Shown here one piece after another: positions 1,831 to 10,961 of a DNA stretch of 10,998 nt. How positions within the stretch are numbered: position 1 is the first letter of the stretch; every line of letters starts with the position of its first letter. A model generated the notes under the pieces. That model was given only the letters and a program-made list of their open reading frames with translations. It did not search any database and was not told the origin of the DNA. Origin of the DNA: an uncultured Chroococcidiopsis sp. (lineage in GTDB: Bacteria; Cyanobacteriota; Cyanobacteriia; Cyanobacteriales; Chroococcidiopsidaceae). A program made the position numbers and the translations under genes. The stretch spans positions 1 to 10,998 of the forward strand of contig CAXTYC010000066.1 of the NCBI GenBank assembly GCA_964248365.1, given 5' to 3'.

Positions 1831-2121
1831 GTTATTCCTATTTGAGTTATCTAAATTGCTTAGAGGTCATTTGTAAAGTAAGCGAACCCCTCTTTGATTG
1901 GTCGAGCAGGAATCAATGGAGGAGCTAGGTGGTTATTAAGGTGAACGCTTATTTTATAAATCAATTCTTAGTGTCTAGAATAAACCTCTCTCGATTCGCT
2001 ACATCCTCCTAAAGACTGAGTTGATTTAGGTTAATATTTGATAAGTAGAACAAGGTGAAAAAACCAAACTGTGTAAAGATAATTTAAATGTACATAATCC
2101 ATTTACCACAGTAACAGTGAC

Positions 2122-3283
2122 ATGGGTAGCCGTTTAAGGGTATTTCTGACTCCCGATCAAGATAAAACTCTGTTTAACCTAAGAACGGCAGATGTACCGC
2201 AGAAAGTGAAAGACAGAGCAGAAGTGATTAGATTGAGCGCACATGGTTGGTACGTAGAGAAGATAGCGGCTCACTTTAATTGGACTGCACAAATAGTGAG
2301 AGAAGTTTTGCATAGATGGAAATAACTAGGTGTGGAAGGGCTTTGGGAAAAACTAGGGCGAGGAGGAAAACCAAGGTGGGCGGAAGCTGACTAGGTGTTT
2401 TTAGAAGAATGTTTAGAGAAAGAACCACGTACATATAACAGCGTTCAGTTAGCCCAAAAACTAGAACAAGAACGCTCGTTGAAATTAAGTCCTGACCACT
2501 TAAGGCAGGTACTTAAAAAAAGGGGATCATCTGGAAGCGAACTAGAAAAAGCCATAAAGGAAAACAAGACCCAGTATTACAATAAATCAAACAGGCAGAC
2601 TTAGAAATGTTGGAATTGTCTGCGGCATTACATTTAGCGCAAAAAATAAAAATTTGACCGTCATATCCAGATCTCTCACTACCAACGAATAAACTTTAAA
2701 ACACGGTCAAATTTTTATTTTCAAGCTTCCTTAACTGGAGAAATCGATTTAAAGTATGTGGATGAATCAGGATTTTGTGCATGGAGCGAACCAAGTTATA
2801 GCTATTACTTTCGAGGCGAGCAGAAACGTTTAGAACAAAGTCAGCGTCGGGGTCGGAGGTTAAGCATCATTGGTTTTCTTCAACATGAAATTAGTTTTGT
2901 GTACGGTTTGGTGATTGGAGGTGTTTCACACAAATCTTATATTCGGATGATGGAAATTGAAGCCGCCGAAGCCGAACAATCGGGACGCATCAGGGTAATA
3001 GTGCAGGATAACGGTCCAATACATCGTTGCAAAGAGGTACAGCAATTATGGTCAAAGTGGGAAGAGATGGGTTTGTACATCTTCTTTTTACCTAAATATT
3101 GTTCCGAAATGAACCCAATTGAATTAGAGTGGCAACACCTGAAAAAAGATGAACTAGCCTCGAAAAGTTTTGAGGATGAGGCGCGACCTTGCTTATGCTG
3201 TGATTGATGGAATTCAAATTAGAGGAGAAAAGGGAAACTACAGTACGCAACGTGTGAAATTTAGCTCTAATCCTTCTGCTTAA
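2122..3283 (+). pseudogene. IS630 transposase pseudogene
   Basis: HTH region, then DESGF, VQDNGPIH and LPKYCSEMNPIELEW motifs. A7G4 slippery site at 2515-2525. Lesions: stops at 2323-2325, 2392-2394 and 2583-2585, a 106-bp insertion at 2628-2733, and a frameshift near 3181-3184. The shifted frame continues DLAYAVIDGIQIRGEKGNY to a stop at 3281-3283. Confidence 0.9.
2628..2733. mobile_element. 106-bp hairpin element, copy 1, inserted in the IS630 transposase
   Basis: Perfect 19-bp inverted repeat (2643-2661 / 2703-2721) around a 41-nt loop. Removing 2628-2733 restores MLELSAA|TGEIDLKYVDESGF in frame. Confidence 0.8.
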
Positions 3284-3478
3284 TTTTCTGTTACATACTT
3301 ATAAATTTCTTCCCCGACTTACTTACTTAGAGAGGATACGCTGGATTGGCTGTTAGCAAAGTATATATTTATCAAGTTTTTCACCCAGATTTTTTTAATA
3401 AATACTAGCGAGCCACGAGTGCCAATTCTTTTAAAGCTAGTTATGGCTTAGCTGCTAAGTTTACCAAAATTTTGTAAA

Positions 3479-4645
3479 ATGAAACATTTTTTAAAGCAAC
3501 CTACGCTCTATCTGGTAATGCTGATTATTGGCAGCAGTGTAGGATGTACCGAGCAAAGAGATAGAGAAGCAAGACTTGCACAACCTGACGCTACTAACAC
3601 TGGACAAAATCCATCCTCTCAAGTTGCTGCCCAGCCAAACAATCTCAATTTTGTCGCCTCAGTTGCCCAAAAGGTAGGGCCTGCGGTTGTACGTATTGAT
3701 GCAACTCGTACTGTAGATGTACCAGCAACTAGTAATCCTTTGATTGAACGTTTTTTTGGTAGTGAATTACCGACTGGGCGAGTCCAACGCGGTATTGGTT
3801 CTGGATTTATTATTAGCTCGGATGGCCGCGTTTTGACTAATGCCCATGTTGTGGAAGGTGCTGATCAAGTCACAGTCGTTCTCAAAGATGGAAGAAGTTT
3901 TGCAGGTAAGGTTATCGGTGCTGACAAGGTAACAGATGTAGCAGTTATCAAAATTGAAGCAAATGGGTTACCAACAGCTCAACCAGCAAATTCTGATAAT
4001 ATTGTGGTTGGACAATGGGCGATCGCTATTGGTAATCCTTTAGGTCTAAATAACACAGTTACTCAAGGCATTGTCAGTGCTACGGGACGTAGTGGATCTG
4101 ATATTGGAGTGCAAGACATACGCCTTGACTTTATCCAAACTGATGCAGCAATTAATCCTGGTAACTCTGGCGGACTTTTGCTCAACGCTCAAGGACAAGT
4201 AATTGGCGTTAACACAGCAATTCTTAGCGGAGCGCAAGGGTTAGGTTTTGCAATACCGATTGAAACAGCACAGCGGGTTGCTAATCAATTAATCACAACT
4301 GGTCGAGTCGAACATCCATATATAGGTGTGCGGCTGATTGAGCTAACACCGGAAATTCAACAGCAAATCAACCAAAGTAATCTTGGTTTTAAAGTCAATC
4401 AAGCGCAAGGAGTCTTAATTGTAGCTGTAGCTCCCAACTCCCCAGCAGCGCGTGGTGGCTTACGTCCTGGTGATATTATTACCTCAGTAAAAGGAGTTCA
4501 AATTCAAAACGCCGATTCTGTCCAAGCTCAAGTACAAGCAACACATGCCTGAAATACTCTTCAATTTGAAGTTAACCGCAATGGTTTACCCCAAACTATC
4601 ACAGTTAAACCAGAGCAATTGCCAGCAGATGCTTCTAATCAATAA
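3479..4645 (+). pseudogene. HtrA/DegP-family (HhoA/HhoB-like) serine protease with PDZ domain and a premature stop at 4550-4552
   Basis: Catalytic motifs TNAHVV, DVAVIK and [17 protein letters not shown] motifs YIGV and [14 protein letters not shown]. After the TGA the same frame continues NTLQFEVNRNGLPQTITVKPEQLP to TAA at 4643-4645. The N-terminal signal ends in a lipobox-like SVGC. Confidence 0.88.
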
Positions 4646-4697
4646 AAAGTAGACAATTGTTAACTACTTAAGATGCTATGCCAAGACTAAAATTGCT

Positions 4698-4803
4698 TTA
4701 GATCTGGCGCAAAAAAAATTGAGGCAGCCCTCTTTAAAGATCTCTCGACTCGCAACCAGTATTCCTAATACAGGGTTGCCTCAATTTTTTCAAGCCTACC
4801 TCT
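4698..4803. repeat. Hairpin element, copy 2 (intergenic)
   Basis: 19-bp inverted repeat (4713-4731 / 4772-4790, one mismatch) around a 40-nt loop. Same flanking and loop motifs as 2628-2733. The right boundary is approximate. Confidence 0.75.
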
Positions 4804-4862
4804 AGAAAGTAAGACATTTTCAAAAATCAAAAGGTATTTGATCACAATTAAGGAGAACGAAG

Positions 4863-5435
4863 ACGACAAATGACTTAAATTCATACCTACCTGTACCAAC
4901 TAAGCAAAAATTTGCAGCTACTTTTCACGTAGTAAGACCGATTAGCTTCTGGGTACAATTATCACTAGGCGCTGTTTCTAGCTTGGCTTTGTTTTTAGCT
5001 ATATTTAGCCGTAATGTCACTGCCCAAACAACGACAAATTCGGTCATGGGGTTTGGAGTCTTTTTAGGCATTATTGGAATTTTAGTGCTGTGCTTTAGAC
5101 TCTATTGGGTGAATCGCTATAGGCGTTTAGATAAACTTTTGCAGTCGCCTAATCGGGAATTACATCCAAGGAAAGAGGACGTAATTCAAGTATTACAAAC
5201 TGCTTTAATCGTCAGTTTGATAGGGCTATTGTTAGCTTTTTTAGCATCTGAAGTAACCGTTATTGCTGTACTATCGAAATCGCTAGCTCTGCCTCAAGGA
5301 GTGGCAGTCTATAGACCTGAAAATGTCATTCGTTCCTTAGATCTTTTTGTGGTTTTGGCAAACGTCAATCTGATTGGCGCTCACCTTGTCGGAAGTATGA
5401 CTTCACTTGGGCTGCTTAACTGGTTAGAGCAATAG
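4863..5435 (+). CDS. DUF3611-like (Tic21/PIC1-related) membrane protein, with ACG at the expected start position
   Basis: The frame is open upstream of the TTG at 4983 and encodes the family-like SFWVQLSLG motif. C-terminal IRSLDLFVVLANVNLIGAHLVG. AGGAG at 4851-4855 lies 7 nt before ACG at 4863. Confidence 0.75.
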   Translation, partial: TTNDLNSYLPVPTKQKFAATFHVVRPISFWVQLSLGAVSSLALFLAIFSRNVTAQTTTNSVMGFGVFLGIIGILVLCFRLYWVNRYRRLDKLLQSPNRELHPRKEDVIQVLQTALIVSLIGLLLAFLASEVTVIAVLSKSLALPQGVAVYRPENVIRSLDLFVVLANVNLIGAHLVGSMTSLGLLNWLEQ

Positions 5436-9295: not shown

Positions 9296-9535
9296 AGCAG
9301 ATCGAGTAAAAAAGCGCTGTTCTATGCGCGAAGCAACTAAGCGCCAATAACTAAAAGTATAAGGCAGCAACCTTGCTCCCAATTCTAGCAAGAATGAATT
9401 TATCAACTTGTCCCTAGAATCCGCTGAAGTTGTAACCAACTCCTACCGATATTCCCACATCTGTGTCATCTCCAAAAAGCGCATTCACAGCAGCTGTTGC
9501 GGTGAATTGACTAGGAGTTGATGTTGAGCAGCGCA

Positions 9536-10319
9536 ATGAAATGTCCCTTATGCGGTCATGAAAAATCTCATAAACATGGCTTGACCAGTAAAGGCACGCA
9601 ACGCTACTTCTGTCCGAAATGCCGTCAAACTTTTACTGAAACTTTCGCTCCGCTCTACTACCGTCGCCAAGTGAGCGAAGAAGACGTGCGAATTGTGCTG
9701 CAATCGCATGCACAAGGCAGTAGTTTACGAGGTATCAGTCGTATAAGTGGTCTAGCTTACGACACAGTTGTCAGTATCGTTCAAGCAGCGGCAGAAAAAG
9801 CGCAGATGCTGCATAATGCCTCTGTTCAAAATGTTGATACGGATGCGATTGCAGCCGATGAATTGTGGTCATTTGTTGAAAAAAACAAAAACACTGCCTG
9901 CCAGAAGAACTAGAGGCTGGAGATTGCTGGATAGCATTGAGTTTAGCTCAACTGAGCGGGTTGATTCTCTGCGCTTGTGTAGGCAAGCATACTGACGAAC
10001 TAGCCATCGAGTTAGTGGCTAGTACTGAAGCCAAGACCGATTGCAAGGAATGGCATACGGATGGTTGGGAGGGATATGAGCGAGTGCTGCCTGATAAAGT
10101 AGAGCATTATATTAGTCAAGGGTTGACGCAACGCTTAGAGCGAACCAATGGGATTGTTCGTCAGCTTTCCAGGGCGTTGGCATCGCCGGCAAAACAAATT
10201 TGGCAAGGTGTGGGAGCAGACCGAGATCACTGTAAGGCTCGTCCTGAGCTACTTTAACTGGATATTGCAGCATTCGTGCCTGGGAACTACAGCCGCACAG
10301 CGAGCAGAGCCAACCGAGC
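9536..10319 (+). pseudogene. IS1-family transposase (InsA zinc ribbon/HTH + InsB DDE), frameshifted and interrupted
   Basis: MKCPLCG...QRYFCPKC zinc ribbon, then DELWSFV followed by an A7C slippery site at 9879-9886. The -1 frame reads KQKHC...GDCWIA...TDGWEGY...LERTNGIVRQ. An extra frameshift near 10165 precedes GRWHRRQNKF. The gene is cut at 10320 by the IS66 end. Confidence 0.88.
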
Positions 10320-10939
10320 GTAAGGATTCAGGTGGGGGGGTATTGACAAAGGGGACGCTTGAGGTGGAGTATCGCCATTATGAACAAAAACCTGCCTCAA
10401 CAAGTAGACCGGGAAAGTCTATGCCAGTTGCCGAAAGAAGAACTGGCGAACATAATCATTGAGCAGGGGATCGCCATCGAAAAGTTGCAAGCGAACATAA
10501 AAGAACTCAAGCAAGAAATCGAGCGGCTTGGTGTCAGTAAAGACCTAGATAGTAAAACTTCATCAAAACCCCCATCTAGTGATCTCCTGAAAAAATCACA
10601 GAAGAAGAAATCTGAGAATAAGCCAGAAACAAATAAAGAGAAACGAAAGCCAGGAGGGCAACCAGGGCACCAAGGAAGGACTCGTAAAGGATTTAGTCGG
10701 GTAGACCGTTTTGAAATATTGCGTCCAGAATTTTGCGCTTGTTGCGGTCACACAGAGTTTGTGGGTGAACCGATAAAAATCGAAAAACAACAAGTAGCGC
10801 AACTAGTTGAACGTCCAATCGAAATCGTCGAATATCATCGCCATATATGCTGTTGTCAGCGCTGTGGAAATTTACAAACAGCGGACTGGTCATCACAAAT
10901 TGTACCAGGACAAGACTTGGGAGTAAGACTACAAGCATT
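10320..10939 (+). mobile_element. IS66-family element, left part only
   Basis: Begins GTAAGGATTCAGG (IS66 ends start GTAA) exactly where IS1 transposase similarity stops. No right IR is present. Confidence 0.75.
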
Positions 10940-10961
10940 CGATGCAATACCTCTCGGTTAA
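10380..10961 (+). pseudogene. IS66-family transposase, N-terminal fragment (leucine zipper, DUF6444-like segment, zinc finger); no DDE domain
   Basis: DSKTSSKPPSSD, RKPGGQPGHQG, CACCG and CCCQRCG motifs. The ORF ends shortly after GVRLQAF at about 190 aa. Confidence 0.85.

Follow-up and report, generated by a model that had tools for sequence, protein, structure and literature searches.

Background

Several kinds of small mobile or repeated DNA resemble the elements considered here. ISY100, a cyanobacterial insertion sequence of the IS630 family, requires no more than its ends and duplicates 2 bp on insertion at TA (PMC2170065). Cyanobacterial MITEs (miniature transposable elements with inverted repeats), such as Nezha, MaeMITEa-h and the groups of Anabaena sp. 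90, are small non-autonomous stem-loop elements (PMC3184786, PMC2779907, PMC3542288), while REPINs, the hairpins built of repetitive extragenic palindromes (REP), are associated with REP-associated tyrosine transposases (RAYT; PMC3116915, PMC3337134). Template switching at inverted repeats, finally, yields arm homogenisation together with spacer inversion (PMC8604942). The present analysis concerns two hairpin elements in a stretch of 10,998 nucleotides from an uncultured Chroococcidiopsis sp. (contig CAXTYC010000066.1 of assembly GCA_964248365.1), hereafter the window, and the family to which they belong.

The group works like a MITE, in that it is short, non-coding, multi-copy and mobile, and its members are real and apparently undescribed MITE-type elements. 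It seems to us somewhat probable that they are non-coding mobile DNA, ~105-115 bp long, for which transposases that recognise the ends likely act in trans, and that their arms are likely kept identical, and their loop likely flipped, by template switching from arm to arm in DNA replication.

The window is contig C66 of its own genome, which is labelled G000 (an assembly of 5.58 Mb in 102 contigs). Other genomes are labelled G001, G002 and so on; C-numbers denote contigs, C41:32243 stands for contig and position, and L300 is a locus of G014 with an IS630 element.

Two hairpin elements of a mobile family

Copy 1 (2628..2733) and copy 2 (4698..4803) both lie on the forward strand and belong to end family A. 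Copy 1 begins with a left outer end of 13 nt (2628..2640) of the type conserved in 17 family-A copies. A left arm follows (2643..2661), consisting of an A-tract, a variable middle and the shared CC(G/C/T)T, then a loop of 41 nt (2662..2702), which is invertible and is assigned to neither strand, a right arm (2703..2721) that is the perfect reverse complement of the left one (19/19), and a right outer end of 12 nt (2722..2733), all except the loop being given on the forward strand. In copy 2 the outer ends lie at 4698..4710 and 4791..4803, the arms at 4713..4731 and 4772..4790 (forward strand; 18/19 complementary, with one G-T), and the loop of 40 nt, likewise without strand, at 4732..4771. The hairpins of an earlier note, which was made from the sequence alone, are therefore real as described, with 19-bp arms and outer termini that are not inverted repeats: the outer 12-13 nt are asymmetric, and the repeat is subterminal. 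Folding as DNA beats shuffled sequences on both strands, with z values of -4.5 and -4.4 for copy 1 and of -3.5 and -3.0 for copy 2. The conserved loop motif of the same note, AGATCTCTC(g)ACTnnCAAC, is present in both copies, but these are its only two matches genome-wide; the loop motifs kept throughout the family are shorter ones (AGAT, AA.AC), and a strict loop pattern matches one G000 copy only. Read as its reverse complement, the left end of family A (window 2628-2646) may resemble one half of the enterobacterial dif site, that on the XerC side, with no match to the remaining half.

Copy 1 lies within a decayed IS630-family element with TA-flanked ends (2042..3325, forward strand; Pfam HTH_23 and DDE_3, with NCBIfam transpos_IS630 below cut-off). 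It breaks the transposase by a net addition of 106 bp, with junctions uncertain by 1-4 bp, and the view that one copy had entered a gene is thereby supported. This IS630 is the target of copy 1, and as its mobiliser is only a candidate. Apart from the hairpin insertion it has two in-frame stops in its first frame, and relatives of it occur in G014, G013, G012, G002 and G005. Copy 2 is intergenic, with a DegP/HtrA-type protease gene on one side and a DUF3611 gene (Pfam) on the other.

Filled and empty orthologous sites, a comparison suggested in the earlier note, were found for both copies, for C3:77335, and for copies of families B and E. IS630 relatives on C100 and in G014 lack the insertion of copy 1, the net difference being 106 bp, and metagenome contigs from four public runs bridge the site, either from 2626 to 2737 with four other letters between or from 2627 to 2738. 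The site of copy 2 is empty in G002, G003 and G005 and is bridged in contigs from three public runs (4694 or 4697 to 4807 or 4816); the public runs contain at most 22% of the words of window 2000-5000. The site of C3:77335 is empty in G005. A family-B copy has an exact empty site in a homologue of a Tn554-like TnpB, and the empty site of a family-E copy, in an IS1 homologue, retains one TA. For C20:70748 the search found no orthologous region. The window elements are real insertions of a mobile family.

An iterated DNA profile of arm, loop and arm finds 100 non-overlapping cores in G000 at E <= 0.05, of which 72 are near full length, and has no match in the reversed genome; the hairpin family is therefore not a product of chance, and the want of further copies that would have spoken against it is not seen. 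Contigs shorter than 100 kb (2.34 Mb) hold 75 of the cores, and larger contigs (3.24 Mb) the other 25. The elements measure 105-115 bp and are non-coding.

The covariance-model scan that the earlier note had proposed also finds copies outside G000. Matches occur in six of 141 genomes, that is, in G000 and five of 140 relatives, with at least 14 rows in G005 (two loci being counted on both strands), 26 in G014, 2 in G021, 1 in G003 and 3 in G079; these counts are lower bounds, as 33 candidates were scored per genome and weak copies can be missed. In a class-wide sample of cyanobacterial genomes the model matches only one of 151, namely G079. Therefore, the group appears to be narrow and centred on one cyanobacterial family.

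Searches of other collections gave no further elements. A metagenome scan with the family-A left end returned 11 matches, none with arms after them; viral scans returned 0 and 2 matches, neither of them an element; and three queries of a plasmid collection had no match. In a genome collection one core pattern had no match and another had nine loci, all in one assembly. A pattern match in G011 was rejected as an element, as it lies within a coding gene and without arms. A longer version, with an open reading frame (ORF) such as one for a recombinase, HUH nuclease or reverse transcriptase, was not found either: matching arms in G000, taken at distances of up to 6 kb, enclose none, and there is none among the unpaired ends of families A, B and E or among the half-core matches in G014, G005, G021, G079 and G003 (22 and 35 places in two of the scans), although all three element-rich assemblies are fragmented, so that this does not amount to absence.

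One core with many outer ends

Each element consists of an asymmetric outer end, an A-rich arm, the core loop, a mirror arm and a second outer end, and the core itself of the shared CC(G/C/T)T, an asymmetric loop of 40-48 nt and the mirror motif. The same core bears at least eight different pairs of asymmetric outer ends. Families A, B, C, D, E and G are present in G000, and F, H and J are added by G005, G014 and G021. By strict pattern, family A, that of the window, has 17 copies (16 in G000 and one in G005). Among 401 genomes, the family-B pattern is matched at 17 places in G000 and, doubtfully, at one outside it (G325, two mismatches), and the family-E pattern is confined to G000 among 61 genomes. 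G005 and G014, although of different genera, have family-F copies that are nearly identical. One family-B element (G000:C50:19011-19065) has no core, its outer ends and A/T tracts being 3 bases apart; this is probably a deletion between the arms, or else a core-less shell.

One of these sets of ends can be related to a transposase. From 20 IS630 loci of G014, G021 and G005 comes L300 (G014:C111), with TA-flanked terminal repeats and a transposase frame. The family-F ends match the terminal inverted repeats (TIRs) of L300 in register at 16-18 of 25 positions, and those of an element on C19 of G000 at 21/25 and 15/25; of random TA-anchored positions in the genome, 0.06% attain 16/25. An end of IS_C29 that was out of register was left out of the comparison. 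The in-register match means that in family F the outer end and the arm's outer 12 nt together form an IS630 terminal repeat. Moreover, in the TA-type families E, F and J the same dinucleotide stands on both sides in 29 of 29 copies (26 TA, and GA, TG and TT once each), as counted by eye with the ambiguous copy C59 left out. The TIR match and the 2-bp duplications together suggest, at the level of sequence, that family F is an IS630-type MITE, as E and J probably are. L300-type IS630 is also present in G005 and G014, where family F is common. Within the L300 IS630 itself (L300:354-712) lies a 353-bp element, with at least 11 further copies in G014 at 98-100% identity.

The statement in the earlier note that the element is not a classical MITE thus holds for family A, with its asymmetric termini and lack of TA duplication, but fails for its sister family F, with IS630-type terminal repeats and TA duplications. 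Family A is not filed as an IS630-type MITE, because the terminal-repeat and TA tests failed for it.

Movement of the elements

In the mechanism proposed, transposases reading the outer ends would mobilise the elements in trans. For family F this would be IS630-type transposition; for family A we would guess at another transposase of the cut-and-paste kind, one with the weak asymmetric target WWCNNC/AW^. On the left side of the family-A target C is found at -5 in 14 of 17 copies and W at -1 in 17 of 17, counts that are not independent because some of the flanks are sibling elements or duplicated segments. In family B the target and the right end share CC or ATTCC.

Several observations weigh against this account. 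Compared with L300, the family-A ends reach only 7-12/25 and the family-E ends 11-13/25, the latter not above background; compared with the IS630 of the window, the family-A ends reach 9-14/25. L300-type IS630 also occurs in G001, G002, G006, G008, G031 and G033, of which the first four have no covariance-model match, and G000 yielded none. TA duplication is lacking in family A, also by its empty sites, and the 1-bp junction match of this family, seen in 10 of 17 copies (0-1 bp), does not exceed permutation (p 0.12). The closest empty allele of copy 1, with 5 differences over 391 aligned bases, differs at three of the four junction bases, and D-type copies appear to substitute for two target bases; rewritten junction bases and replaced target bases are not usual for DDE transposition. 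As to the flipping of the loop, the spacer inversions reported in connection with template switching are of 2-5 bp, far below 41 nt (PMC8604942).

Several other enzymes were tried as mobiliser and rejected. No clean co-occurrence with the elements was seen for the window-type IS630, for Y1/RAYT, IS110 and Tn554-like TnpA, which also have no shared ends, or, within the window's own genome, for resolvase-type serine recombinases. The Tn554-like transposon at G000:C12:4600-8500 (L021) is a three-gene tyrosine-recombinase transposon with a zinc-finger-rich TnpB; stops and an inserted family-B element interrupt it, and it has homologues in 8 of 30 relatives.

A single tyrosine or serine recombinase might instead move all end families through a circle and invert the loop by using the arms as inverted sites, in which case the junction differences would be an overlap of 1-4 bp exchanged at integration. 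We regard this as unlikely. It would explain why families A and B have no clear duplication, why the right end of the element resembles the left flank of the target (ATTCC in the exact empty site of family B, and the C at -5 and W at -1 of family A), and why junction bases are rewritten at copy 1 and at D-type insertions; a recombinase acting on the arms could also produce the pattern of covariation and flipping described below. In addition, lone cores at G003:C5:23466 (L121) and G079:C68:17650 (L130) stand 50 and ~590 bp upstream of XerC/D-like recombinase frames, where they may be either passenger insertions or relics of a recombination site. However, the family-F ends equal IS630 TIRs, the family-A target counts are not independent, owing to the related flanks mentioned above, and no such site lies upstream of the intact plasmid-type recombinases of G000 (C46, C76). 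At C72 an element even sits within a recombinase gene. The Tn554-like TnpA of G000, moreover, was not found in the element-rich G014 and is present in element-free genomes.

More doubtful still is a REPIN-like process, in which an HUH nuclease (RAYT or IS200 TnpA) would cut the single-stranded hairpin at fixed distances and paste it 3' of a short motif. The long hairpin, the asymmetric tails, the nesting and the lack of duplication in families A and B do resemble REPINs (PMC3116915, PMC3337134), and there are five Y1_Tnp matches in G000. Yet the arm alignment has no palindromic REP, and the three RAYT-like genes of G000 are flanked, over 350 bp on each side, by unrelated repeats and not by the hairpin element. 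Y1 genes also occur in element-free genomes, and the 2-bp duplications of the TA-type families do not fit. Furthermore, the tetramers TTAC and TCAA, expected at the cleavage sites of an element of the IS608 type, are part of the insertion. Non-autonomous IS200/IS605 derivatives (palindrome-associated transposable elements, PATE) are defined by two short subterminal hairpins and by insertion 3' of a fixed tetra- or pentamer; this identity was rejected, as the hairpin group has one long stem and the family-A target is loosely defined.

Least credible among the movers are RNA-guided, non-autonomous donors of the IS110/IS1111 type, which the subterminal inverted repeats, the 1-2 bp shared at junctions and the aiming of D-type copies at one motif in sibling arms (8/13) might suggest, since G000 has only one IS110 fragment, the IS110-rich G011 (31 matches) has no model match, no core or arm lies in the flanks of 30 IS110 loci scanned, the TA-type targets are otherwise unspecific, and the loops, considered as guides only, do not resemble the targets of their own copies more than those of other copies (p 0.985 and 0.18).

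Stem covariation

The compensatory changes noticed between the two stems extend to the whole family. In 51 cores 90.7% of stem positions are paired, against 68.9% after shuffling, and double changes number 208, against 69.7, values attained in none of 500 shuffles; slid controls are 38-58% paired. Since inverted repeats served in part to seed the set, and since its sequences are related, these figures should not be taken as a probability.

Such covariation could reflect a structured RNA family with a stem kept by selection, as the earlier note had considered, and its strength is the point in favour of that explanation. If the RNA were functional, G-U should be preferred on one of the strands. 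Mismatches, in contrast, are without strand bias (22 G-T and 22 A-C in the 51 cores; 13 G-T and 10 A-C in 67 elements oriented by their outer ends). The loop is found in both orientations, in the ratio 11:6 in family A and 5:4 in family B. Between copy 1 and its near-identical sister at C41:32243, the loop matches at 38 of 41 positions when flipped and at 15 of 41 when compared directly, and the arms differ by one substitution, which is mirrored in both arms. Family E has two arm types, with all four left/right combinations present, and perfect stems occur in only 18 of the 51 cores, many copies having unmatched arms. Therefore, pairing is not strictly required. The equality of G-T and A-C, the flipped loop and the mirrored arm change all point to arm copying at the DNA level and not to RNA selection, and the stem covariation is likely to reflect DNA copying between arms.

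In agreement with this, no Rfam family matches the window or six other loci at gathering score (only MIR529 and ohsC appear, at E 0.29-0.37), no promoter- or terminator-like site is seen at either copy within 2500-4950, and the elements break genes and one another. The probability that is left for a structured RNA is accordingly very small. Under the mechanism preferred here, that of end-reading transposases and template switching, switching between the arms would account for both arm identity and loop flips.

Nesting

Of the 100 cores in G000, 23 lie within 300 bp of another core. Several clusters are nested many layers deep, with elements inside each other's arms and loops. Of 13 D-type copies, 8 have landed on the arm motif that siblings share, and at C28 and C58 a single host element has been struck in both of its arms. 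Several family-A copies are at the loop motif of siblings.

These arrangements suggest a way in which ends may be exchanged: nested insertion in the arms of siblings would be followed by recombination between arms and by arm copying, and the core would gain new, instantly symmetric transposase-binding sites. The core may then be a parasite of parasites, which nests in the arms of its siblings and has its new sites made symmetric by arm copying, so that one lineage switches between IS630-type and unrelated transposases or recombinases, some members being targeted to the family's own arms. This extension of the argument is tentative, and we think it rather less probable than not. If true, it would represent a modular, host-switching system of mini-elements.

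Other sequences also interrupt the elements. The family-E copy at G000:C18:109058 is truncated by an element with a transposase, which may be ISAs1-like, to judge by its protein. Cores at G000:C40:45304 and C68:8234 are cut off by other sequences that presumably are group II intron 3' ends, judged by a motif, and an RVT_N Pfam match lies nearby (L015:5667-6164); this suggests that group II introns insert into hairpin cores at these two places.

Other features of the window and its genome

The protease gene beside copy 2 (window 3479-4552) stops at a TGA (4550-4552) within the PDZ region. The allele looks prematurely stopped, because contigs of two runs read G at 4550. Towards the contig end, window 9518-10330 and 10359-10961 contain the pieces of an IS1-like element (InsA zinc ribbon) and, after them, a transposase-like fragment with DUF6444. 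Many contigs of G000 also carry other, unrelated repeat families of 150-250 bp, with terminal repeats around AGATCTTGCA or TAGAC and up to ~12 copies each.

Comparison with known systems

No description of the family was found in the literature within reach, including passages of PMC10969869, PMC3542288, PMC3184786, PMC2779907, PMC3116915, PMC3337134 and bioRxiv 2024.01.18.576219; as ISfinder, subscription papers and supplements lay beyond reach, an earlier listing among predicted MITEs is possible.

In a small number of related cyanobacteria, the elements break into genes and into mobile elements of other kinds. With one core, many ends, and one set of ends traceable to a specific IS630, they offer a case for how non-autonomous elements could gain new mobilising enzymes, and those members that target arms provide, on a small scale, a natural instance of site-selective insertion. 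They also hold a warning for the discovery of RNA structures, in that strong apparent covariation can arise on DNA without a functional RNA, as the lack of strand bias and the accompanying loop inversion indicate here.

On the tests made, the hairpin group falls outside the REPINs, the IS605 derivatives, the IS110 donors and the Rfam RNAs. The small dispersed repeats (SDR) of Nostoc (Elhai et al. 2008) are reportedly mobile sequences of 21-27 nt that have a structure in common and tend to insert into each other; the hairpin group is like them in nesting and unlike them in size, with 105-115 bp and arms of 18-19 bp. REPINs are similar in forming a ~100-bp hairpin with matched arms, a variable spacer and asymmetric tails, and in their higher-order clusters (PMC3116915, PMC3337134), whereas the hairpin group has no palindromic REP and no linked RAYT, and part of it has 2-bp duplications. 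The mirror-image arm changes and inverted spacers are shared with template switching at inverted repeats, which was described for spacers of 2-5 bp in yeast genes (PMC8604942), in contrast to ~41 nt in a mobile element here.

Among cyanobacterial MITEs, Nezha, MaeMITEa-h and the Anabaena sp. 90 groups are likewise small non-autonomous stem-loop elements with filled and empty sites and gene disruption. As judged from their descriptions, not their sequences, they are set apart by terminal inverted repeats and a size of mostly 130-435 bp (77-541 bp in Anabaena sp. 90; PMC3184786, PMC2779907, PMC3542288). Relative to cyanobacterial MITEs in general, the hairpin group is restricted, with its few matches among the 141 and 151 genomes sampled. 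The IS630/Tc1-mariner-type MITEs (compare ISY100, PMC2170065) are also short, non-coding and multi-copy, and families E, F and J agree with them in being TA-flanked with a 2-bp duplication, the ends of F matching an IS630 TIR in register. The hairpin group differs from them in that one core is common to unrelated ends and junction rules, in that family A has asymmetric termini and no TA duplication, in that the perfect repeat is subterminal and variable, and in that the loop flips.

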